This document shows positions 30 through 39,813 of a DNA stretch of 40,079 nt, piece by piece (the stretch's first letter is position 1; the number at the start of each line of letters is the position of its first letter). The DNA lies in sequence record OZ035821.1; one strand, 5' to 3'. The DNA comes from Kayfunavirus PDP21P1. The notes beneath the pieces were generated by a model, which was not told where the DNA came from, did not search any database, and was given only the letters and a program-made list of their open reading frames with translations. Position numbers and translations under genes: made by a program.

Positions 30-293
30 ATGACGCAGATGGACTTAGAGAAGTTCCTCTTGATGCTGGATACTGAACGTGCTAGACTCATGCTGCAAGA
101 CCTGCGGGATGACTCTAAGCGTTCACCTCAGCTTTACAACGCCATTGAGAAGCTACTGGCTCGTCACAACTTCGTGCTAAGCAAGGTGTCTGTTGACGAG
201 AAGACGCTCGCTGATATGGAGGCTTTGAACAGGGAGTACGATAAGGTGCTCTCAGCTACTGAGGATAACGACACCGGGTATGGTGTACAGTAA
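30..293 (+). CDS. 18: Terminase small subunit (DNA maturation protein A), T7 gp18 homolog
   Basis: 87-aa ORF with AGGAGG RBS upstream. Sequence (LxMLDTE...RSPQLYNAIEKLLxRH) parallels T7 gp18 as recalled. Lies directly upstream of the spanin and large-terminase genes. Confidence 0.8.
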   Translation: MTQMDLEKFLLMLDTERARLMLQDLRDDSKRSPQLYNAIEKLLARHNFVLSKVSVDEKTLADMEALNREYDKVLSATEDNDTGYGVQ

Positions 294-297
294 GTGT

Positions 298-342
298 TAG
301 ACTCAAGGTCATTACTATATGTAGTGGCCTTTATGGTTAACA
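298..342 (+). promoter_or_regulatory. Conserved hairpin (AAGGTCA-N13-TGGCCTT), candidate RNase III processing site between genes 18 and 18.5
   Basis: One of five copies of the same stem motif (others at 4139-4156, 5162-5187, 9026-9051, 16437-16461). This one sits where T7 has the R18.5 RNase III site. Confidence 0.3.
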
Positions 343-394
343 CACACTACGGGCGGAGACGCTACGTGGATTCTGAGAAATGAGGAGGGCAACT

Positions 395-832
395 ATGCTC
401 GAACTTTTATGTAAAGCAATCCCGTGGCTGGTTGCAGGACTCCTGTTCTGTTCTGGCTACTGGGTGGCAGACAATAAGTGGGAGGCGAAGGTAAACAATG
501 AGTACATCACGAAACTTGAGGCACGAGAGAATCAACGGGCTGCTGTCCAAGGTGAAATCAACAAAGTGTCAGCCGAGTGGCAAGACAAGATGTCCGCGCT
601 GGAAGGCTCTACTGATAGGATTATTGCTGACCTTAACCGTGATAACAAGCGGCTGCGCGTCCGAGTCAACACCTCAGGTCTCACCGAGTCAGATGTCAGT
701 AGATGCTTCCCTAATGGTAGAGTCGAACTACACCCAGAAACTTCTAAAAGTCTTATCCGATTAACTCAGGAGGCAGACCTTAAGGAGAAGGCGCTTCAGG
801 ACACAATAAGGAGGCTCCAAGGTGTTAAGTGA
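395..832 (+). CDS. 18.5: i-spanin (Rz-like), T7 gp18.5 homolog
   Basis: N-terminal transmembrane helix (IPWLVAGLLFCSGYW) and strong similarity to T7 gp18.5 (EGSTDRIIxDLxxDNKRLRVRV). Start moved to ATG 395, which has a GAGGAGG RBS; the track start at 380 lies inside that RBS. Confidence 0.8.
   Translation: MLELLCKAIPWLVAGLLFCSGYWVADNKWEAKVNNEYITKLEARENQRAAVQGEINKVSAEWQDKMSALEGSTDRIIADLNRDNKRLRVRVNTSGLTESDVSRCFPNGRVELHPETSKSLIRLTQEADLKEKALQDTIRRLQGVK
498..764 (+). CDS. 18.7: o-spanin (Rz1-like lipoprotein) embedded in the +1 frame of gene 18.5, T7 gp18.7 homolog
   Basis: Embedded out-of-frame ORF with a signal peptide and lipobox (LTVITSGC). Closely parallels T7 gp18.7 (MSTxRxLR...GCASES...MVSVDxSLMVExN). 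Confidence 0.75.
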   Translation: MSTSRNLRHERINGLLSKVKSTKCQPSGKTRCPRWKALLIGLLLTLTVITSGCASESTPQVSPSQMSVDASLMVESNYTQKLLKVLSD

Positions 833-1259
833 TTACTACAAAGTGGACCCGGCTAGTCCATCCGGTCTGGTCTCCGTTAGGACTGGAAAGCCTGTGGGGA
901 CATTAAGTCGGATGGGATATTGGATAGTACAGACACGAAGTCTAGGCAGTAAGCGGGCCCATCGTGTGATATGGGAACTAACCAATGGTCCTATACCGCA
1001 TGGTATGCAAATAGACCACATCGACAGGAACCCTAGCAATAATACCTTAAGTAACTTACGGCTCGTTACTGCCGCTGAAAACACTTGGAATACTGGTAGC
1101 CATTATGACTCTAAGACAGGAGTGAAGTGCGTTACCCGTCACCAGAATGGTTATAGGATTCAGGTTAAACGCGGGAATGCCTATATGCGAACAACACGTC
1201 CCACTTTAGAGGAGGCTATCGCTGTCCGGGACCTAATGCTGGAGGGACTATATGTCTAA
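822..1259 (+). CDS. HNH homing endonuclease with AP2-like DNA-binding domain
   Basis: Motifs YYKVDPxSPSGLV, [35 protein letters not shown], and a C-terminal GYRIQV...[15 protein letters not shown]2-like segment. GTG start with GGAGG upstream. Absent from the T7 backbone at this position; AT-rich relative to flanks. Confidence 0.75.
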
Positions 1260-3018
1260 GAAAACACCCGCTGAAAGACAGGCAGAAATGGTCCAAAGGA
1301 TGAGGGACGACTTCGTGTTCTTCATCTTCGTTCTCTGGAAAGCACTAAGTCTTCCGGTTCCAACCCGCTGCCAGATAGATATGTGTAAGAAGCTGGCTGC
1401 TGGGGATAATCGCCGCTTCATCCTTCAGGCGTTCCGTGGTATTGGCAAGTCGTTTTTGACCTGTGGCTTTGTGGTCTGGAAGCTATGGAATAACCCAGAC
1501 TTGAAGTTCATGATTGTGTCGGCCTCAAAGGAACGAGCCGATGCGAACTCCATCTTCATCAAGCGAATCATCGACCTCATGCCTCAGCTTCAGGAACTCA
1601 AACCTAAACAGGGGCAGCGAGATGCGGTTATCAGCTTCGACGTGGGACCTGCCAAGCCAGACCACTCACCTTCGGTTAAGTCCGTTGGTATCACTGGTCA
1701 GTTGACTGGTAGTCGTGCTGACATCCTGATTGCCGATGACGTGGAGGTTCCGAACAACTCAGCGACTCAGGCTGCACGAGACCGTCTATCAGAGCTTGTG
1801 AAAGAGTTCGACGCTATCCTGAAGCCGGGAGGTACGATCATCTATCTGGGTACTCCTCAGAACGAGATGACCCTGTACCGTGAGCTGGAAGGTCGTGGGT
1901 ACACCACTACTATCTGGCCCGCTCGTTATCCACGCGACAGGAAGGACTGGCAGTCTTACGGCGACCGTCTGGCTCCTATGCTTCAGGCAGAGCTGGAAGA
2001 GGACCCTGAGTCCTTCTACTGGCGTCCGACTGATGAAGTACGCTTCGATGATACGGACCTGAAGGAACGTGAGCTGTCCTACGGTAAAGCTGGCTTCGCT
2101 CTACAGTTCATGCTTAACCCGAACCTGAGTGATGCCGAGAAGTACCCTCTGAAGCTCCGTGACCTTATCGTAGCCGACTTGGACCCAGCGTCTAGCCCAA
2201 TGGTATACCAATGGCTTCCTAACCCTCAGAACAAGCGTGAGGACGTTCCTAACGTTGGACTCATGGGTGACTCATACCACACGTATCAGACTGTAGGTTC
2301 TGCCTTCAGTTCGTACACCCAGAAGATTCTAGTCATTGACCCTAGTGGTCGTGGTAAGGATGAAACTGGTTATGCGGTACTGTACCAGCTAAACGGCTAC
2401 ATCTTCGCTATGGAAGTTGGCGGTATGCGAGGTGGCTATGAAGACTCTACGCTGGAAGCCTTGGCTAAGATTGGTCGTAAGTGGAAGGTCCACGAATACG
2501 TCATTGAGGGTAACTTCGGTGATGGTATGTACCTTGAGCTATTCAAGCCTGTAGCTTCCCGTATCCATCCTGCGGCTGTAACTGAAGTGAAGAGTAAGGG
2601 TCAGAAAGAACTCCGCATCTGTGACGTTCTGGAGCCTATCATGGGGTCTCACCGACTTATCGTCAACGCTTCTGCTATCGTCCAAGACTACCAGACAGCC
2701 TCTGACAAGGATGGCGTTCGTAACCCTATCTACTCTCTCTTCTACCAGATGACACGTATCTCTCGTGAACGTGGGGCCTTGGCACACGATGACCGACTTG
2801 ATGCGCTGGCTATCGGTGTACAGTTCTTCGTTGAGTCGATGGCTAAGGATGCCAACAAAGGCGAACGTGAAGTCACTGAGGAGTGGCTGGAGGAACAGAT
2901 GGAGAACCCACGTAAAGGCTTCGAGTCCATCCACACTGAGTTCTGGGACAATGGGGTCCGGGTAACTCACGATACGGACGACGAGCTTGGACTAGGGTCC
3001 TACGTTACGTTCCACTAG
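1252..3018 (+). CDS. 19: Terminase large subunit (DNA maturation protein B), T7 gp19 homolog
   Basis: 588 aa. N-terminus [24 protein letters not shown]...[12 protein letters not shown]...[20 protein letters not shown] matches T7 gp19 almost residue for residue; length close to T7 (586 aa). Confidence 0.93.
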
Positions 3019-3112: not shown

Positions 3113-3135
3113 ACTTAACTATCACTATAGGGAAG
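3113..3135 (+). promoter_or_regulatory. Phage RNA polymerase promoter (phiOR-like, downstream of gene 19)
   Basis: ACTTAACTATCACTATA^GGGAAG; matches the 11-member promoter family in this window. Same relative position as T7 phiOR. Confidence 0.7.
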
Positions 3136-6012: not shown

Positions 6013-8694
6013 ATGAGCGTCATCTCTATTGACAGACACGACTTCTCTGATGTGTCGAACGCCATTGAGCCGTTTAACCTGCTGGCAGACCACTACGGGC
6101 AAGACCTTGCAGTAAAACAGCTTCAGCTTGAGCATGAGGCATACACTGAAGGCGAGCGACGTTTCATCAAAAACCTTGAGCGACAGACTGAGCGCGGGGA
6201 ACTGGCAGACAATCAGGTCGCCAAGCCTTTGATGCAGACTCTGGTTCCTAAGATTGCGCAAGCCGTCAGGGAGTGGCATGAAGGCCCAGACGGGAAGCTG
6301 TCAACCTCTCGTCCTAGCGTAGCGTTCACCATGTTGAGCACTGAAGAGAGGGCCGTTAAAGACCGTTCTCTACGCATCTCCTGCGAGTCTGCTGCTGTCA
6401 TCATACTGAAGGTCATCCTCTCCAAGCTGGTCAAGCCTGAAGGGATACCGATTACACCGATGGCCTCCGCGTTAGGTCGCACACTTGAGGACGAAATCCG
6501 CTTCGGTCGCATCCGTGACAAGGAGAAAGAGCACTTCAAGAAGGCGATAGCTGATAACCTGAATAAGCGGGCCGGGGCGTCCTACAAGAAAGCCTACATG
6601 CAAGCGGTCGAGGCATCCATGCTGGAGAAAGGCCAACTGGAAGATGCGTGGGGGACTTGGAGTCCTACAGAGGCTGTCCACGTTGGCATCAAGATGCTCG
6701 AGATTGTCATCCAGTCAACACAACTGGTCGAGCTTAAGCGGTACGGCGCTGGCAATGCAGCGGCTGACGTAGAGATGGTCCACCTGTCAGACTTCTGGGT
6801 CAAGAAGATGGCACAACGAGGATTCAGCCTTGCGGGTATCGCTCCAGTCTACCAGCCTTGCGTCGTTCCACCTAAGCCGTGGACTGGTGTCGTAGGTGGT
6901 GGGTACTGGGCCAAAGGTCGCAGACCACTACCACTGATTCGCTTAGGGTCTAAGTCTGCGGTAGCACGTTACGAAGACGTGTACATGCCTGAAGTATATG
7001 ACGCTGTTAACATTATCCAGAATACACCTTGGAAAGTGAACAAGAAGGTTCTGGACGTGGTGAACATGGTCGAGAAGTTGCACAACACGCCTATTGATGA
7101 CATCCCTCAGATGGAGCCACTGAAGCCTGAGGACTATGTGGGTGAGACTGAAGAAGAACTCAAAGCATGGAAGAAAGCTGCTGCTGGTATCTACCGCCGC
7201 GAGAAGGCCCGACAGTCACGCAGATTGTCGCTGAGTTTTATCGTCAGCCAGGCGAACAAGTTCTCGCAGTTTAAGGCTATCTGGTTCCCATACAACATGG
7301 ACTGGCGCGGTCGCGTCTACGCTGTACCGATGTTCAACCCTCAGGGTAACGACATGCAGAAAGGTCTCCTGACTTTGGCAGTCGGTAAGCCTATTGGCGC
7401 TGATGGTTTCAAATGGCTGAAGGTCCACGGTGCAAACTGTGCGGGTGTTGATAAAGTCACCTTCGAGGAGCGCATCAAGTGGGTGGAAGATAACCACGAC
7501 AACATCATGGCTGCTGCTAAAGCGCCGATGGATAGTATTGAGTGGTGGGGAAAGTTAGACTCTCCGTTCTGTTTCCTCGCGTTCTGCTTCGAGTATGCTG
7601 GCGTAATGCACCACGGCCTTTCTTACTCCTGCTCGCTACCGATAGCGTTCGATGGGTCCTGCTCTGGGATTCAGCACTTCAGCGCGATGCTTCGTGATCA
7701 CATCGGTGGACACGCAGTAAACCTGACGCCATCCGGTAAGGTACAAGACATCTACCGCATCGTGTCCGACCGCATTGAGGAGGAGCTTAAAGTCCTGCTG
7801 GTTAACGGCACGGACAATGAGATGGTAACTCACGAGGACAAGAAAACTGGTGAGATTACCGAACGTCTCAAGCTGGGGACACGAGAGCTGGCCCGGCAGT
7901 GGCTTACTTACGGTATGTCACGTAAGGTCACTAAGCGTTCAGTCATGACTCTGGCCTACGGGTCGAAGGAGTACGGATTCGCAGACCAAGTTTACGAGGA
8001 CATCGTGATGCCAGCGATTGACTCAGGGTCTGGCGCTATGTTCACCGAGCCAAGCCAAGCGTCTCGCTTCATGGCTAAGATGATTTGGGAAGCTGTGAGT
8101 GTGACCGTAGTTGCTGCTGTTGACGCGATGAAGTGGCTTCAGGGTGCTGCCAAGCTGCTGGCTGCTGAAGTGAAGGACAAGAAGACTGGAGAAATCCTGA
8201 AGCCTTGCCTTCCAGTACACTGGGTAACACCTGATGGTTTCCCTGTCTGGCAGGAATACCGCAAGAAGGATACCACGCGTCTGAACCTGATGTTCTTAGG
8301 GTCATTCAACCTTCAGCCTACCGTCAACAAAGGCACGAAGAAGGAGCTGGATAAGCACAAGCAGGAGTCAGGAATTAGCCCGAACTTCGTCCACTCACAA
8401 GATGGTAGCCACCTACGCAAGACTGTAGTCCACACTCACCGCAAGTATGGCGTGATGTCATTCGCAGTGATTCACGATAGCTTCGGGACAATCCCGGCTG
8501 ACGCTGAGTATCTGTTCCGTGGTGTCCGTGAGACTATGGTCGAGACCTACCGCGACAACGATGTGCTGCTTGACTTCTACGAGCAGTTCGAATACCAGCT
8601 TCACGAGAGTCAGCGCGACAAGTTGCCTGAGCTTCCGAAGAAAGGTAAACTGAATATCGAAGACATCTTGTCTTCAGACTTTGCATTCGCTTAA
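6013..8694 (+). CDS. 1: DNA-directed RNA polymerase (single-subunit), T7 gp1 homolog
   Basis: 893 aa. Near-collinear with T7 RNAP as recalled (PWTGxxGGGYWAxGRRPL, FPYNMDWRGRVYA, FCFLAFCFEYAG, HDSFGTIPADA, C-terminal FAFA). Confidence 0.97.
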   Translation: MSVISIDRHDFSDVSNAIEPFNLLADHYGQDLAVKQLQLEHEAYTEGERRFIKNLERQTERGELADNQVAKPLMQTLVPKIAQAVREWHEGPDGKLSTSRPSVAFTMLSTEERAVKDRSLRISCESAAVIILKVILSKLVKPEGIPITPMASALGRTLEDEIRFGRIRDKEKEHFKKAIADNLNKRAGASYKKAYMQAVEASMLEKGQLEDAWGTWSPTEAVHVGIKMLEIVIQSTQLVELKRYGAGNAAADVEMVHLSDFWVKKMAQRGFSLAGIAPVYQPCVVPPKPWTGVVGGGYWAKGRRPLPLIRLGSKSAVARYEDVYMPEVYDAVNIIQNTPWKVNKKVLDVVNMVEKLHNTPIDDIPQMEPLKPEDYVGETEEELKAWKKAAAGIYRREKARQSRRLSLSFIVSQANKFSQFKAIWFPYNMDWRGRVYAVPMFNPQGNDMQKGLLTLAVGKPIGADGFKWLKVHGANCAGVDKVTFEERIKWVEDNHDNIMAAAKAPMDSIEWWGKLDSPFCFLAFCFEYAGVMHHGLSYSCSLPIAFDGSCSGIQHFSAMLRDHIGGHAVNLTPSGKVQDIYRIVSDRIEEELKVLLVNGTDNEMVTHEDKKTGEITERLKLGTRELARQWLTYGMSRKVTKRSVMTLAYGSKEYGFADQVYEDIVMPAIDSGSGAMFTEPSQASRFMAKMIWEAVSVTVVAAVDAMKWLQGAAKLLAAEVKDKKTGEILKPCLPVHWVTPDGFPVWQEYRKKDTTRLNLMFLGSFNLQPTVNKGTKKELDKHKQESGISPNFVHSQDGSHLRKTVVHTHRKYGVMSFAVIHDSFGTIPADAEYLFRGVRETMVETYRDNDVLLDFYEQFEYQLHESQRDKLPELPKKGKLNIEDILSSDFAFA

Positions 8695-23675: not shown

Positions 23676-24560
23676 ATGTCTCAATCAGTTTATGCCGAGT
23701 TCGGCGTTAGCTCTAATGCAATCACTGGTTCCGTTGAGGACCTGAACGAACACCAGAAGTCTATGCTTGAACAGGACGTAGCTGTTCGTGATGGCGACGA
23801 TGCTATTACCTTCAAGCAACTGGAAGCTGAAACCGAAGAGGCTACCGAAGAAGACGATAACGTCGACGAGACTGAAGGTGAAGAAGACCACGAGTCCGAT
23901 GACGAAGAGTCTGAGACCGATGGTGAGCAGCCTGAGTTCATCGAACTAGGTGATGCACCGAAAGAGCTGACTGAAAGTGTCACCGCTCTGGATGAAAACG
24001 AAGCTGCATTTGACGACATGGTGTCTTCTGCTGTAGAAGCTGGCAAGGTCACTGCTGATGAAATTACCGCTATCAAGGCTGAATACGCCAAGGACGGTAA
24101 GCTGTCTGACGCATCCTACGCTAAGTTGCAGGAAGCAGGTTACACCAAGCGTTTCGTAGATTCGTTTGTCCGTGGTCAGGAAGCTCTTGCTGAACAGTAT
24201 GCTGCTGGTGTGGTTCGCTACGCTGGTGGTGCTGAACAGTTTAATCGCATCCTGTCACACCTTGAGTCCAACGACCCGTCAACTCGTGAAGCACTGGAAG
24301 CTGCTATCGTTCGTAAGGACATTGCGACTACCAAAGCTCTGCTGAATCTGGCTGGCAAGACTCTGGGTAAAGCTGTAGGTGTTAAACCTCAGCGAACCAT
24401 CACCACTCAGGCTAAACCTGTGGTCGCACCTAAGGCTCCTCAGACCGAAGCATTCAGCTCCAAGGCTGACATGATTAAGGCTATGAGTGACCCGCGATAC
24501 CTGCGTGACGCTAAGTACACGATGGAAGTTCGCGCTAAGGTAGTTGCATCAAGCCTGTAG
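23676..24560 (+). CDS. 9: Capsid assembly (scaffolding) protein, T7 gp9 homolog
   Basis: 294 aa, highly acidic middle region. YAKLxExGYTKxFxDSxxRGQEAL and KAMSDPRY parallel T7 gp9. Confidence 0.9.
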   Translation: MSQSVYAEFGVSSNAITGSVEDLNEHQKSMLEQDVAVRDGDDAITFKQLEAETEEATEEDDNVDETEGEEDHESDDEESETDGEQPEFIELGDAPKELTESVTALDENEAAFDDMVSSAVEAGKVTADEITAIKAEYAKDGKLSDASYAKLQEAGYTKRFVDSFVRGQEALAEQYAAGVVRYAGGAEQFNRILSHLESNDPSTREALEAAIVRKDIATTKALLNLAGKTLGKAVGVKPQRTITTQAKPVVAPKAPQTEAFSSKADMIKAMSDPRYLRDAKYTMEVRAKVVASSL

Positions 24561-24561
24561 G

Positions 24562-24584
24562 ACTAAACTATCACTATAGGGAGA
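24562..24584 (+). promoter_or_regulatory. Phage RNA polymerase promoter (phi10-like, upstream of the capsid gene)
   Basis: ACTAAACTATCACTATA^GGGAGA (initiating GGGAGA as in the T7 class III consensus). Confidence 0.85.
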
Positions 24585-24686
24585 CCAAGAGACAGACTCA
24601 AGGTTTCCCTATTACTTCAGTCCATACGGATTGGGCGTACAGTAAGTAATAAACTTTATCTTTCAATTGAATAGGAGAATTATCAT

Positions 24687-25733
24687 ATGGCAAACGTTCC
24701 GGGTCAGAAAATTGGTACAGACCAAGGTAAAGGCAAATCTGGTTCCGACGCTCTGGCGTTGTTCCTGAAGGTCTTTGCTGGTGAAGTCCTGACCGCATTC
24801 ACTCGCCGCTCTGTAACTGCTGACAAGCATATTGTCCGTACCATTCAGAACGGTAAGTCTGCTCAGTTCCCGGTCATGGGTCGCACCTCTGGTGTGTATC
24901 TGGCTCCGGGTGAGCGACTGTCTGATAAGCGTAAAGGTATCAAACATACCGAGAAAGTGATTACCATTGATGGTCTGCTGACTGCCGATGTGATGATTTT
25001 CGACATTGAAGACGCGATGAACCACTACGACGTGGCTGGCGAGTATTCCAACCAGTTGGGCGAAGCTCTGGCTATCGCTGCTGATGGTGCGGTGCTGGCT
25101 GAAATGGCTATCCTGTGTAACCTCCCGGCTGCATCCAACGAGAACATCGCTGGTCTGGGTACTGCGTCCGTACTGGAAGTTGGTAAGAAAGCTGACCTCG
25201 ACACCCCGGCTAAACTTGGTGAAGCAATCATTGGTCAACTGACCATTGCTCGTGCGAAGCTGACCTCCAACTACGTACCTGCTGGCGACCGTTACTTCTA
25301 CACCACGCCGGACAACTACTCTGCAATCCTCGCTGCTCTGATGCCTAACGCTGCTAACTATGCTGCGCTGATTGACCCAGAGACTGGTAACATCCGTAAC
25401 GTGATGGGCTTCGTTGTTGTTGAAGTTCCGCATCTTGTACAGGGTGGCGCTGGTGAGACCCGTGGTGCTGATGGTATCACTATCGCTTCCGGCCAGAAAC
25501 ACGCATTCCCGGCAACTGCTGATGGTGACGACGTTAAAGTTGCTATGGACAACGTTGTAGGTCTGTTCTCTCACCGTTCTGCTGTGGGTACTGTGAAGCT
25601 GCGTGACTTGGCGCTGGAACGTGACCGTGACGTCGATGCTCAGGGCGACCTGATTGTTGGTAAGTACGCTATGGGTCACGGTGGTCTGCGTCCTGAAGCG
25701 GCTGGCGCACTGGTTTTCAGCCCAGCGGCGTAA
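24687..25733 (+). CDS. 10: Major capsid protein 10A, T7 gp10 homolog
   Basis: 348 aa. ALFLKVFxGEVLTAF, GKSAQFPV, HTEKVITIDGLLTADV, ALMPNAANYAALIDPE, SAVGTVKLRDLALER, YAMGHGGLRPEAAGA match T7 gp10A. Strong RBS. Confidence 0.96.
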   Translation: MANVPGQKIGTDQGKGKSGSDALALFLKVFAGEVLTAFTRRSVTADKHIVRTIQNGKSAQFPVMGRTSGVYLAPGERLSDKRKGIKHTEKVITIDGLLTADVMIFDIEDAMNHYDVAGEYSNQLGEALAIAADGAVLAEMAILCNLPAASNENIAGLGTASVLEVGKKADLDTPAKLGEAIIGQLTIARAKLTSNYVPAGDRYFYTTPDNYSAILAALMPNAANYAALIDPETGNIRNVMGFVVVEVPHLVQGGAGETRGADGITIASGQKHAFPATADGDDVKVAMDNVVGLFSHRSAVGTVKLRDLALERDRDVDAQGDLIVGKYAMGHGGLRPEAAGALVFSPAA

Positions 25734-25864
25734 GCACCTTTAGCCAACCTAACGTCGCTACAGTAGCGGCTGCACCTGAAGAGGAGACTCTAACTCCTCA
25801 ACAGAAAGCTGCGCGTACTCGTGCTGCGAACAGGGCCGCTAAACTGGCTGAGTCCAACAACTAA
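24687..25864 (+). CDS. 10: Minor capsid protein 10B (predicted -1 frameshift product of gene 10)
   Basis: Slippery heptamer G-GTT-TTC at 25712-25718, four codons before the 10A stop. The -1 frame is open from 25718 to a TAA at 25862-25864, adding about 48 aa (QPSGVSTF...LAESNN). Same arrangement as T7 10A/10B. Confidence 0.5.
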
Positions 25865-25867
25865 TTG

Positions 25868-25908
25868 AAACCCCTTGGGTGCCTTCGGGTGCTTGAGGGG
25901 TTTTTTGC
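25868..25908 (+). terminator. Tphi-like intrinsic terminator downstream of the capsid gene
   Basis: CCCCTTGGGTGCC-TTCG-GGTGCTTGAGGGG stem-loop with a UUCG tetraloop, followed by TTTTTT. Architecture and position match T7 Tphi. Confidence 0.75.
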
Positions 25909-25927
25909 TTAAAGTGAGAGGAGACTT

Positions 25928-26494
25928 ATGGCTCAATACATTCCACTGAATGCTAACGATGACTTAGACGCCATCAACGATATGTTAGCTGCTATCGGTG
26001 AACCAGCAGTCCTACAGCTTGACGAAGGCAATGCTGACGTCTCGAACGCACAACGTATCCTGCATCGTGTCAATCGTCAGGTCCAAGCTAAAGGCTGGAA
26101 CTTTAACATCAACGAAGCTGCTGTACTGACACCTGATGTCCAAGACAACAGGATTCGATTCCTACCGTCATACCTTCGTGTAATGACTGCCGGGGCCACC
26201 AGCTACTACAGCAACATGGGTGGATACCTGTACGACCTGTCCACTCAGTCAACCACTTTCACCGACCCTATCACGGTAGAGCTTGTGGAGATGAAGCCAT
26301 TCTCCGAGATGCCTGTGGTCTTCAGGGACTACATCGTCACTAAAGCTAGCCGTGAGTTCAACGCTAAGTTCTTCGGTAGCCCAGAGTCAGAGCTATACCT
26401 TCGTGAGCAGGAAGCAGAACTCTATCAGCAGGTTATGGAGTACGAGATGGACACTGGTCGCTACAACATGATGTCTGACATCGGGAGGGACTAA
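25928..26494 (+). CDS. 11: Tail tubular protein A, T7 gp11 homolog
   Basis: 188 aa. ILxxINRQxQxxGWxFNI, YIVTKASRxFNxxFFGxPE and MEYEMD parallel T7 gp11. Confidence 0.92.
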   Translation: MAQYIPLNANDDLDAINDMLAAIGEPAVLQLDEGNADVSNAQRILHRVNRQVQAKGWNFNINEAAVLTPDVQDNRIRFLPSYLRVMTAGATSYYSNMGGYLYDLSTQSTTFTDPITVELVEMKPFSEMPVVFRDYIVTKASREFNAKFFGSPESELYLREQEAELYQQVMEYEMDTGRYNMMSDIGRD

Positions 26495-36300: not shown

Positions 36301-37216
36301 CTTGACTGGTAGTAAGCGTAAGTTCGATGACCGCTGGCTGAAGACAGCTGGTATCTCAGACGAGCAGTGGAAGGGCATTAAGTCCCTAATCCGTGAGTCA
36401 GTGACTCGTGGTCCAGACGGGAAGTACACCATCAAGGATAAGAAGGCGTTCAGTCAGGACCCAAGGGCTATGGACCTGTGGCGTATGGGTGACACCATCG
36501 CTGACGAAACGTTACTCCGTCCTCATAAGCTGTCCAACATGGACGCCAAGGCTTATGGTCCTATCGCTAAGACTGTCCTTCAGTTTAAGAACTTCGTCAT
36601 CAAGTCCATCAATGGGCGAACCATGCGTACCTTCTATAACGCCACGAAGAACAACCGAGCGATTGACGCTGCACTATCGACCGTGATGTCTATGGGTCTG
36701 GCTGGTATCTACTACATGGCTCAGGCGCACATCAAGGCTTATGCTATGCAGGATGGTCGAGACCGTGACTACCTTAAGCAAGCTCTGGACCCAACGATGA
36801 TTGGCTATGCGGCCCTGTCCCGTAGTTCACATCTGGGTGGACCACTTGGGGTAGCTAACATTCTAGGTGGCATCGCTGGGTATGAGGACACTAAGATGCT
36901 CCGTTCGTCTATCCTACCTCGTTCGCCTACAGAGAAGCCTGAACGTGCCATCACGTTTGGTGCAGCTACAAGTGACCCTGTGATGAATGTTGTTGGTAAC
37001 TTCTTGGAGCAGGTTCCAGCTTTCGGATATGCTGCTAACGTTGGCGTTTCTGCTTACAACTTGGCTGGCTACCTCAAGGCTGATACTCGTGTCAACGAGC
37101 GAGACTACATGACCGGGATGTATAATACGTTCCGTGAACTGGTCCCGAATGACCCGATTACCCAGAAGTTGCTGCTTGGAACGTTTGAGGAGCAGGGTAT
37201 CCACATCAAGGACTAA
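33329..37216 (+). CDS. 16: Internal virion (core) protein D, T7 gp16 homolog
   Basis: 1295 aa. Collinear with T7 gp16 from about residue 200 onward (VRSPTGMQSGASGK, GTYVPHVY, GISHTEQF, NNSFLEARNLFDSD, NGTTNYLLDA, DPRAMDLWR, NNRAIDAALS, ELVPNDPxTQ). The N-terminal ~200 aa does not match the T7 transglycosylase domain as recalled. Confidence 0.92.
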   Translation: MATRGVRNANPGNIRKSKDQWEGAIGDDGAFVIFDSPESGVRALAKNLQSYGRQGYDSIEKIINRWAPPSENDTQSYIDSVVSATGIPATQSLDLSDPDTLSSLAQAISFHETGSRYDPEVYQQGVARALNGISPKTPPVSANVFDALTEGLKAKPKVALGENLPTAAGLNIEGQAPEAPNESFGEMFYKATGETMQEREDRSTWFGFGAATEAEVKNSMVGVAIRAGQTEDSLDVIGDVFNPTRWNNHKWTREELDQIRNAGVLPQYYGVITGGSPQNLTELINLALENQKLDQEKAKAGTGAQLAAGVIGAGVDPLTYVPIAGQVGKGGKLVNKMFTVAAQSGALAGVSEMARTSVAGGDAHVAEAILGGALFGGGMTAIADGLGRALGRNTNEFAGPATRLEARETARNVDGQDLSRLPIQEGEQTFSHQGVKFADVPNEPGSVRLEDGSILIGENPLNPKTRQVFDEVIEPERAAAGVNLGGLTEIGLKLLRSENPEIRGVAADLVRSPTGMQSGASGKIGTTASDVFERLRSVDHRFYNDIDDAVTEALKDPYFQTAFWRDSGAFRQDIYQRVSMAIEDGSGNLKAELTPGELKVYDLLKNQFDAKREMMENPSMFGRPDAQSIFPGSRFKGTYVPHVYSNQMKELYIKELGSPEALQEAIKKSWLTSYASRPEVKKRVDEALLEADPTLTPEGLAAAVDKYANDKAYGISHTEQFERSSVMEENINGLVGLENNSFLEARNLFDSDMSIVLPNGQTFSVNNLREWDMDKIVPAYNRRVNGDIAIMAGTGKTTKEMKDLVETMMNKAGDDGKLKGEVSTLRDTLKILTGRARRDGADDAAFATVMRTMTDLSFFTKNAYMGVQNLTEIGGMLARGNVRALLHGVPMFRDLAFRNKKVGASEIKDLHNVIFGKELDDSIRPSKQDVIDRLRSYSDLGRGAATALGTAKYYTGELAVRSPFTKVLNGTTNYLLDAGRQGFLSDIVEHSLTGSKRKFDDRWLKTAGISDEQWKGIKSLIRESVTRGPDGKYTIKDKKAFSQDPRAMDLWRMGDTIADETLLRPHKLSNMDAKAYGPIAKTVLQFKNFVIKSINGRTMRTFYNATKNNRAIDAALSTVMSMGLAGIYYMAQAHIKAYAMQDGRDRDYLKQALDPTMIGYAALSRSSHLGGPLGVANILGGIAGYEDTKMLRSSILPRSPTEKPERAITFGAATSDPVMNVVGNFLEQVPAFGYAANVGVSAYNLAGYLKADTRVNERDYMTGMYNTFRELVPNDPITQKLLLGTFEEQGIHIKD

Positions 37217-37234
37217 ACTATCACTATAGGAAAC
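37212..37234 (+). promoter_or_regulatory. Phage RNA polymerase promoter (phi17-like)
   Basis: ACTAAACTATCACTATA^GGAAAC; overlaps the gene 16 stop codon. Confidence 0.75.
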
Positions 37235-37281
37235 GGGAGGCGCTACCATAGGTCTCCCTTTAATTCATAACAGGAGGCATA

Positions 37282-39813
37282 ATGTCCACGCTTACACAAT
37301 TCCCTTCAGGAAACACTCAGTACAGGATTGAGTTCGACTACCTAGCCAGGACGTTTGTTGTTGTTACGCTGGTGAATAGCTCTAACCCTACCCTGAACCG
37401 TGTACTGGAAGTTGGTCGAGATTACCGATTCCTTAATCCAACGATGATTGAGATGTTGGTTGACCAATCAGGTTTCGACATCGTTCGTATTCACCGTCAG
37501 ACTGGAACTGACTTAGTGGTAGACTTCAGGAATGGCTCAGTGTTGACAGCTAGTGACCTGACCAATGCAGAGCTTCAGGCTATCCATATTGCAGAAGAAG
37601 GTCGAGACCAAACGGTTGACTTAGCGAAGGAATATGCCGATGCTGCTGGTAGCTCTGCTGGCAACGCTAAGGATAGCGAGGACGAAGCACGCCGAATCGC
37701 TGCGAGTATCAGGGAAGCTGGTCTAATTGGCTATATTACCCGTCGCTCCTTCGAGAAAGGCTACAACGTTACAACATGGAGCGAGGTCCTGCTATGGGAA
37801 GAGGATGGTGATTATTACCGCTGGGATGGTACGCTTCCAAAGAACGTTCCTGCTGGTTCAACTCCTGAAACTTCCGGTGGGATTGGATTAGGTGCGTGGG
37901 TTAGTGTTGGTGATGCTGCTTTAAGAAGTCAGATTTCAAACCCGGAAGGGGCAATACTCTACCCGGAATTGCAGATGGCAAGATGGCGTGATGAGGGTGA
38001 TGTTCGAGGCTGGGGTGCTAAAGGGGATGGTGTAACAGATAGTACGGAGAATATAGCTGCTTCACTAAATTCTCAAAAAGCTGTCGTAGCATCAGAAGGT
38101 GTATTCTCTAGTTCTGGTATTAATAGTAATTACTGTAACTTAGACGGTAGAGGCAGTGGGGTGCTAAGTCACCGTTCCAGTACAGGTAACTACTTAGTAT
38201 TTAACAATCCACGTACAGGTCGCTTAAGTAATATTACGGTAGAAAGTAATAAGGCGACGGATACCACTCAGGGACAGCAGGTATCTCTTGCTGGTGGCAG
38301 TGATGTTACGGTAAGTGACGTTAACTTCTCAAACGTTAAAGGTACTGGTTTCAGTTTAATCGCATACCCTAATGATGCGCCACCTGATGGACTTATGATT
38401 AAAGGCATTCGAGGTAGCTATTCCGGCTATGCTACTAATAAGGCAGCCGGATGCGTACTTGCTGACTCCTCAGTTAACTCCCTCATAGATAACGTCATTG
38501 CTAAGAACTACCCTCAGTTCGGAGCAGTAGAGTTGAAAGGTACAGCCAGTTACAACATAGTCAGTAATGTTATAGGGGCAGATTGCCAGCATGTAACTTA
38601 CAACGGCACTGAAGGGCCAATAGCTCCTTCTAACAACCTTATCAATGGGGTAGTGGCTAATAATCCTAAATATGCAGCGGTTGTTGCAGGCAAAGGTAGT
38701 ACCAACTTAATCTCCGATGTGCTTGTAGATTTCTCAACCTCTGATGCTAGGCAGGCTCATGGTGTTACAGTAGAAGGTTCTGGTAACGTCATAAATAATG
38801 TGCTTATGTCAGGGTGTGATGGTACTAACTCTTTAGGGCAAGCTCAAACTGCTACAATTGCACGCTTTATAGATACAGCTAATAACAACTATGCGTCTGT
38901 ATTTCCTAGCTACAGTGCTACAGGTGTTATTACTTTCGAATCAGGTTCTACCCGTAACTTCGTAGAGGTAAAGCATCCGGGAAGGAGAAACGACCTTCTC
39001 AGTGCTACTGGTACTATTAGCGGTGCAGATACTATTGACGGCACTAATAATAGCAACGTAGTGCACGCCCCTGCATTAGGGCAATACATAGGCAGTATGT
39101 CCGGTAGGTTCGAATGGCGGATTAAGTCCATGTCACTTCCATCAGGGGTTCTTACCTCTGCGGATAAGTACAGGATGCTTGCCGATGGGGCTGTGTCATT
39201 AGCTGTAGGCGGAGGTACTTCTTCTCAAGTACGCCTGTTCACTTCTGACGGCACTTATCGGAATATATCACTTACTAGCAGTAACGTGCGTCTTCCTACC
39301 AGTAGCGAAGGTTATTTGCAGTTAGGTTCTAATGCAATGACCCCAGATAGTACTAATACATACGCATTAGGTTCCGCAAGTCGAGCATGGTCTGGCGGTT
39401 TTACTCAATCAGCATTCACTGTTGTCTCAGATGCTAGGGATAAAACAGAGCCTCTTAATATCTCAGATGCTTTACTGGATGCTTGGTCTGAAGTTGACTT
39501 TGTGCAGTTTCAGTACTTGGACCGAATTGAGGAGAAGGGTGCAGACTCAGCTAGATGGCACTTCGGCATCATCGCTCAGCGAGCTAAGGAGGCCTTCGAA
39601 CGTCACGGTATAGATGCACATCGCTATGGCTTCCTGTGCTTCGACAGTTGGGATGATGTGTACGAGGAAGATGCCAATGGCTCTCGTAAACTGATTACAC
39701 CAGCAGGTTCCCGCTATGGTATTCGTTACGAGGAAGTACTGATATTAGAGGCTGCGTTGATGCGGCGTACTATTAAGCGTATGCAGGAAGCATTAGCTGT
39801 TATGTCTAAGTGA
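37282..39813 (+). CDS. 17: Tail fiber / tailspike: T7 gp17-like N-terminal anchor, beta-helix (pectate-lyase-like) domain, C-terminal self-cleaving chaperone domain
   Basis: N-terminal ~150 aa (FDYLARTFVVVTL, VDFRNGSVLTASDL, AIHIAEEGRD) parallels the T7 gp17 tail-attachment domain. Central region has GWGAKGDGVTDST, typical of pectate-lyase-fold tailspikes. C-terminus (SDARDK...WHFGIIAQRAKEAFE...GIRYEEVLILEAA) fits the peptidase S74 / intramolecular chaperone family. Confidence 0.9.
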   Translation: MSTLTQFPSGNTQYRIEFDYLARTFVVVTLVNSSNPTLNRVLEVGRDYRFLNPTMIEMLVDQSGFDIVRIHRQTGTDLVVDFRNGSVLTASDLTNAELQAIHIAEEGRDQTVDLAKEYADAAGSSAGNAKDSEDEARRIAASIREAGLIGYITRRSFEKGYNVTTWSEVLLWEEDGDYYRWDGTLPKNVPAGSTPETSGGIGLGAWVSVGDAALRSQISNPEGAILYPELQMARWRDEGDVRGWGAKGDGVTDSTENIAASLNSQKAVVASEGVFSSSGINSNYCNLDGRGSGVLSHRSSTGNYLVFNNPRTGRLSNITVESNKATDTTQGQQVSLAGGSDVTVSDVNFSNVKGTGFSLIAYPNDAPPDGLMIKGIRGSYSGYATNKAAGCVLADSSVNSLIDNVIAKNYPQFGAVELKGTASYNIVSNVIGADCQHVTYNGTEGPIAPSNNLINGVVANNPKYAAVVAGKGSTNLISDVLVDFSTSDARQAHGVTVEGSGNVINNVLMSGCDGTNSLGQAQTATIARFIDTANNNYASVFPSYSATGVITFESGSTRNFVEVKHPGRRNDLLSATGTISGADTIDGTNNSNVVHAPALGQYIGSMSGRFEWRIKSMSLPSGVLTSADKYRMLADGAVSLAVGGGTSSQVRLFTSDGTYRNISLTSSNVRLPTSSEGYLQLGSNAMTPDSTNTYALGSASRAWSGGFTQSAFTVVSDARDKTEPLNISDALLDAWSEVDFVQFQYLDRIEEKGADSARWHFGIIAQRAKEAFERHGIDAHRYGFLCFDSWDDVYEEDANGSRKLITPAGSRYGIRYEEVLILEAALMRRTIKRMQEALAVMSK

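Follow-up and report, generated by a model that had tools for sequence, protein, structure and literature searches.

A predicted T7-type -1 frameshift where the capsid gene of Kayfunavirus PDP21P1 ends, as known from phage K1F

We propose that the major capsid gene of Kayfunavirus PDP21P1 contains, near its end, a programmed -1 ribosomal frameshift site of the T7 gene 10 type (G_GUU_UUC), and that this site yields a longer capsid protein, 10B. We consider this to be very probable. The slip site and the 10B extension are already known: they have been published and annotated in close relatives. Our analysis covers a stretch of 40,079 nucleotides (OZ035821.1; one strand, 5' to 3'), which we will call the window, and all coordinates are positions in it. 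The features that we will discuss are:

24566..24584, + strand: phage RNA polymerase promoter (the phi10 analogue), AACTATCACTATAGGGAGA, 5' of the capsid gene; identified by its motif
24687..25733, + strand: major capsid protein gene 10A, zero frame, 348 aa, predicted 36.3 kDa; from the list of open reading frames
25694..25696, + strand: TGA in the -1 frame, which is the nearest upstream stop in that frame (7 codons before 25718) and the upstream limit of the stretch where a frame change reaches the extension
25712..25718, + strand: slippery heptamer G_GTT_TTC, at the Val-Phe codons 343-344 of 10A; read from the sequence
25718..25864, + strand: predicted -1 extension of 10B, 48 codons plus TAA; from translation, homology, and the codon-position pattern
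25724..25759, + strand: candidate 3' hairpin with an 8-bp stem, AGCGGCGU/ACGUCGCU (25724-31/25752-59), and a 20-nt loop; from fold prediction
25867..25906, + strand: Tphi-like intrinsic terminator with a 17-bp stem (25867-25883/25888-25904) and a T-run (25901-25906); from folding and a terminator scan

The zero frame of 10A ends with CTG GTT TTC AGC CCA GCG GCG TAA, and the stop codon is at 25731-25733. The first-pass annotation, which was made from the sequence alone, had placed G GTT TTC four codons ahead of the 10A stop, and both the register and the four sense codons can be read directly from the sequence. It had also described a 48-codon extension in the -1 frame that runs to TAA 25862-25864, immediately before a Tphi-like terminator. 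Translation in the -1 frame from 25718, where the first codon is CAG, gives the same 48 codons (QPSGVSTFSQPNVATVAAAPEEETLTPQQKAARTRAANRAAKLAESNN), and the stop codon of this tail is 3 nt from the start of the terminator hairpin. The complete 10B, or join(24687..25718, 25718..25864), would have 392 amino acids and a predicted mass of 41.0 kDa. This is 4.6 kDa more than 10A, close to the gain of "about 5 kDa" that had been given. The predicted transframe peptide of 10B contains ...GALVFQPSGVSTF... More broadly, the T7 10A/10B arrangement that the first-pass annotation recognized holds up, as the heptamer, the capsid family, a homologous tail, a pattern of selection on that tail, and the Tphi-like terminator are all present.

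In the proposed mechanism, most ribosomes would read through G_GUU_UUC and stop four codons on, which would give 10A (348 aa). In a minority of cases, the tRNA-Val in the P site (GUU to GGU) and the tRNA-Phe in the A site (UUC to UUU) would slip back by one base. Translation would then continue in the -1 frame from CAG at 25718 for 48 codons, to the TAA at 25862-64, and give 10B (392 aa, 41.0 kDa). 10B would co-assemble with 10A, so that a fraction of the subunits would expose, on the outer surface of the head, a C-terminal tail of 48 residues. By analogy, the display experiments with K1F that are described below support a tail on a fraction of the capsid subunits. From its composition and its pattern of conservation, the tail would consist of a probably flexible linker that is rich in Ala, Pro, and Glu, with a conserved basic stretch, LTPQQKAARTRAAN(R/K)A, after it.

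The tRNA slippage, the incorporation into virions, and the efficiency of ~10% are taken from published work on T7, Kvp1, and K1F. Condron et al. (1991) reportedly assigned the T7 site to ribosomal slippage by sequencing a transframe peptide. The efficiency of frameshifting in T7 is about 10%, and a review gives G_GU for T7 among the variants of X_XX (PMC5009743).

The best matches to the 1.37 kb around the site are from Kayfunavirus (K1F-like Studiervirinae) and are 96-98% identical, with 354 phage records matched; Escherichia phage TM1 is an example of a close match to this 1.37 kb query (98.3% identity). The gene order is T7-like: the scaffold gene 9 (23676-24560), the promoter, the capsid gene, the terminator, and the tail tubular gene 11 (25928-26494). 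By its match in Pfam, the product of the capsid gene is Gp10A-like (PF21703, E = 1.1e-103); it is near-identical to PDB chain 9vvq_I and matches T7 gp10A (2xvr) at E = 2e-146. The core of the promoter, AACTATCACTATAGG, is present in 7 copies on the + strand (at 3117, 9002, 20758, 23579, 24566, 29117, and 37216), while 0.01 copies are expected by chance, and the EcoDS1 record has a promoter annotated at the position equivalent to 24566..24584. Among the seven copies, only the one that precedes the capsid gene has the full GGGAGA start.

The window looks like a complete phage genome that is circularly permuted. In relatives with the conventional orientation, the region that matches its genes for a holin, the small and large terminase, and an Rz-like protein (30-3018) is at the right end (36392-39692 in phage yong1, for example). 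There is an RNA polymerase-sized ORF at 6013-8694, and an ORF at 37282-39813 is in the position of gene 17 (tail fibre), although this assignment is from gene order only. In a crude gene call for the + strand, large ORFs tile nearly the whole strand, and we do not consider a 48-aa TTG ORF on the minus strand, across the terminator (25790-25936), to be a gene.

The predicted tail is a homologue of that of T7 10B (E = 2e-11 by BLASTP, with 36 amino acids aligned at 64% identity), and it matches the PHROG family phrog_12582, or 'head protein' (E = 3.7e-10). A distant-mode blastn search with a 181-nt query (25690-25870) found 176 records, of which 97 were at least 90% identical. A tblastn search of a phage collection with the 48-aa tail gave no match, probably because this Ala-rich query was masked. 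We analyzed variation by codon position in 17 distinct 63-nt blocks around LTPxQKAARTRAANKA, from 27 loci that span T7-, Yep-phi-, and K1F-like phages. At codon positions 1, 2, and 3 of the -1 frame, we found 9, 8, and 20 variable columns and 493, 478, and 1462 pairwise differences. On this comparison, the -1 frame of the tail shows a pattern of purifying selection at the protein level. Also, the tail of Sarma103 is shorter than the window's and the tail of T7 is longer, yet these length differences leave the -1 frame readable to each tail's own stop.

We compared the 3' ends of 84 capsid genes, which came from the window, five GenBank records, and 78 of 80 loci from IMG/VR (the other two could not be scored). 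Because of the relatedness among these loci, the following counts do not represent independent events: GGTTTTC was present in 51 of the 84 sequences, and 49 of those 51 have a conserved -1 tail (45-96 codons). In another 21 of the 84, the homologue of the Val codon is GTC, GTA, GTG, or ATC, which are mostly synonymous changes, and none of these 21 has a conserved tail; in most of them, the terminator comes directly after the 10A stop. Because GGTTTTC and the tail occur together, and the tail is absent where GTT has been replaced, the slippery Val codon is retained only where there is a tail to be reached. Two loci kept the heptamer and have broken tails. In one (L010, from the same contig as L087), the 10A stop is short of one A (TAAG to TAG), so that the tail falls into the +1 frame; the other (L050) has a TAG inside the tail. 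Either a dispensable tail was truly lost in these two, or their records contain sequencing errors.

Instead, the slip site and its open -1 frame might be a relic that was kept by descent from a T7-like ancestor, with negligible shifting and no role for 10B. In keeping with this, T7 and T3 can reportedly do without gp10B (PMC3276506), two relatives have broken tails, and we did not find a supported stimulatory structure in this clade. Against a relic, the variation is biased towards the third positions of the -1 frame (20 variable columns, as against 9 and 8), related tails of differing length stay readable in that frame, and the GTT codon is kept in every tail-bearing lineage and replaced where the tail is absent. 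Also against it are the display on K1F virions of domains fused to the end of g10b, and the 131 nt of otherwise non-coding DNA that the tail fills in a compact genome. We think that a relic is very unlikely.

If the tail is translated by frameshifting, the frame change must occur within a short stretch. Between the TGA at 25694-96 and position 25861, the -1 frame lacks any ATG, GTG, or TTG. As the frame is closed at that TGA and has no start codon, the tail can only be translated via a frame change inside 25697-25733, and GGTTTTC is the only tandem slippery motif within these 37 nt. This bears on whether the tail could be made by another route, namely independent initiation of a small ORF, readthrough of the stop codon, or slippage by RNA polymerase on the T run. 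Several published annotations do list a separate small '10B' ORF (PMC4283147, PMC4925675), and the members of phrog_12582 are short 'head proteins' of this kind. Independent initiation is at odds with the lack of start codons. Readthrough of the TAA at 25731-33 would continue in the zero frame, which reaches a TAG after 10 codons, while the conservation lies in the -1 frame. Transcriptional slippage generally requires longer homopolymer runs, and the T run here is only 4 long, so slippage by the polymerase is unlikely; the reported transframe peptide of T7 also points to the ribosome. Overall, we regard another route to the tail as exceedingly improbable.

The heptamer count and the length of the ORF are, by themselves, within what is expected by chance. 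GGTTTTC is not enriched (2 copies in the window, with 3.9 expected), and among 41 genes from a crude call, 12 have a -1 ORF of at least 44 codons beyond the stop; such ORFs mostly arise where that frame enters the next gene. The placement of the heptamer is another matter, as the sole copy on the + strand is in the correct register and inside the 37-nt stretch from the -1 stop to the zero-frame stop (25697-25733), which we roughly estimate from its frequency in shuffles to have a chance of ~5e-4. The case beyond chance is carried by access to the frame, homology, selection, and the natural control, not by the number of heptamers or the length of the ORF. Given the homology of the tail to T7 10B, the codon-position pattern, the close association of heptamer with tail in the 84 sequences, and how precisely the heptamer is placed and in which register, it has a probability near zero that a heptamer and an open frame merely coincide in a spacer without coding function, and we view it as already effectively refuted by the comparative data.

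We now return to programmed frameshifting and ask what might stimulate it. The first-pass annotation had recommended a search for a downstream RNA structure, and we found no convincing one: a candidate hairpin with an 8-bp stem is predicted, but it has no support from covariation, and the 82 nt downstream of the heptamer fold no better than shuffled sequences (z = -0.9). At sites of the dnaX or IS-element kind, an X_XXY_YYZ heptamer is paired with a local hairpin or pseudoknot 5-9 nt to its 3' side. The candidate starts 5 nt 3' of the heptamer, with a predicted energy of -9.3 to -10.0 kcal/mol. Across 12 relatives, we saw one-sided changes in it and no compensatory ones. The stem is weakened in K1F (-4.5 kcal/mol versus -9.3), a phage that is known to make 10B, and Sarma103 has a deletion of the 3' arm. 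A 201-nt fold has z = -3.9, but we do not count this in favor of a stimulator because this stretch contains the terminator hairpin (-25.2 kcal/mol alone). When IMG/VR was scanned for exact copies of the candidate's 3' arm, 8 contigs were found and no further variant of the tail; with only 8 contigs, a larger set for covariation could not be built. A scan of 24400-26100 against Rfam gave no match at E ≤ 1. By eye, there is no convincing match to a Shine-Dalgarno-like stimulator upstream of the heptamer, in GAAGCGGCTGGCGCACT. We also dropped a small hairpin in the block that encodes AARTRAA, which by eye has a central mismatch in T7 and in Yep-phi-like sequences.

The terminator is strongly predicted (-25.2 kcal/mol, z = -4.9, with 0 of 200 shuffles as stable), is invariant across the 12 relatives, and is annotated in EcoDS1, Penshu1, and SP7. 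Frameshifting in T7 is reportedly affected by a CCCC that lies in the terminator, over 200 nt downstream of the site, and the review describes this effect as unexplained (PMC5009743). The window's terminator has a CCCC in its 5' arm (25871-25874), 153 nt from the slip site, that is likewise invariant in the 12 relatives, but the terminator stem needs it anyway.

We did see a more convincing pattern of base pairing in another group. In seven Yep-phi/BP12A-like relatives that have a T7-type tail (L009, L032, L035, L036, L044, L052, and L063), we compared the 78-81 nt from the heptamer onward. There is a two-tier stem-loop 6 nt 3' of GGTTTTC; five of its pairs change on both sides yet stay paired, and z for single sequences is mostly -2.5 to -5.7. 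The 5' arm of this stem-loop, which has no equivalent in the window's clade, contains the 10A stop codon.

Among the relatives, the 10B tail acts like an exchangeable cassette (25712-25866 in the window, 2523-2813 in L015, and 2523-2810 in L014). The capsid proteins of L014 and L015 are 94-95% identical to the window's. Up to GGTTTTCA, the sequences are nearly the same; their -1 extensions are unrelated (94 codons versus 48 in the window), and from the last codon through the stop and the terminator (AACTAATTGAAACCCC...) they are identical again. The 94-codon type of tail matches phrog_7473 (unknown function) at E = 2e-36 and has no match in Pfam.

Other relatives have Big_2 (Ig-like) tails in the -1 frame, of about 90 to 180 codons, and lack a TTTT run in the last 12 codons of the capsid gene (L040, L048, L057, L060, L062, L064, L066, and L067). 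For L040, the one such locus that we tested, the match to PF02368 has E = 5e-15. All eight have x_xxA_AAG_G two codons before the stop, which fits with the lysyl-codon slip that is reported for T3 and phiYeO3-12. In two more loci (L047 and L068, from IMG/VR contigs 3300034349_000001 and 3300034127_000003), a 475-codon -1 ORF lies downstream of G_GTT_TTT. It begins with a Big_2 domain, which is followed by ~390 residues with no Pfam match even at E ≤ 10; the motifs FEGDSLT and DGTHS resemble GDSL/SGNH esterases, by eye only. If this ORF is expressed by frameshifting, it would be an unusually large addition to a capsid.

A bolder proposal, which we offer tentatively and which as a whole is rather doubtful, is that the K1F-like clade has either a different stimulator from T7's or none, that the slip site and Tphi are fixed junctions between which unrelated tail cassettes recombine, and that LTPxQKAARTRAAN(K/R)A has a specific binding role instead of being a passive tail. 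Stimulation in this clade may come from the weak hairpin 5 nt downstream, which is specific to the clade, or a heptamer near a stop codon may suffice by itself.

The record for Penshu1 (another Kayfunavirus) in GenBank has a joined CDS, labelled 'minor capsid protein', with a -1 frameshift, and the amino acid sequence of its tail is identical to the window's. In the EcoDS1 record, there are notes on a 'slippery sequence' and on a 'region of similarity to gp10B'. In the RefSeq record for K1F, only 10A is annotated. In many Kayfunavirus records (PQ133619, OM867676, and relatives; L001 and L002), the plain 10A ORF (347 aa) is called 'minor capsid protein' or 'minor capsid protein 10B', and there is no entry for the product of the frameshift; the 347-residue chain 9vvq_I in PDB carries the same 'minor capsid protein' label. 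A 10B that is missing or mislabelled in the records is a gap in annotation, not in knowledge. To annotate this genome correctly, join(24687..25718, 25718..25864) should be added as 10B. As the end of 10B is a proven site for low-copy display in K1F, the position just before the TAA at 25862 should work for this purpose here as well. The importance of the site is mainly for annotation and engineering, and it tells us nothing new about frameshifting itself.

The closest known system is that of Kayfunavirus K1F, which shares with the window an identical heptamer with its immediate flanks, the register, and the terminator. Over the 181-nt query (25690-25870), the two are 96.7% identical. One of the few nucleotide differences is the one that weakens the candidate hairpin in K1F, and the 48-codon tails differ at one residue (A to D). 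In K1F, g10b is a published product of -1 frameshifting that adds 44 triplets, and fusing GFP, EGF, or Ig-like domains to its end gave stable phages that display them (PMC6277420, PMC10367136, PMC13370021).

In the 10A/10B system of T7 (Condron, Atkins and Gesteland 1991), whose 10B is annotated as a joined CDS, a homologous capsid gene carries an identical G_GUU_UUC at its end. The tails of T7 and the window share the block EETLTPxQxAARTRAAN(K/R)A, and in both, the stop codon of the tail comes shortly before a Tphi that has CCCC in its 5' arm. The differences from T7 are minor. The T7 site is 3 codons before the 10A stop instead of 4, and its tail has 56 codons instead of 48. The sequences just 3' of the site are unrelated: T7 has a run of GGGGG and a predicted stem 4 nt downstream (z = -2.3), whereas the window has neither. 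In Kluyvera phage Kvp1, which belongs to a different genus, mass spectrometry identified peptides from a 10B that is made by slippage at TTTTCA (PMC2579914). Systems of the T3/phiYeO3-12 type also give a minority of subunits a C-terminal addition by a -1 shift at the same place in the gene, but they slip at lysyl codons (x_xxA_AAG) and not at G_GUU_UUC, and their tail is a folded domain of ~86-91 residues (Big_2, PF02368, in the loci that we examined) instead of an Ala-rich tail of 48 residues. As far as can be judged from sequence comparisons, the window essentially holds the K1F version of the T7 10A/10B system.
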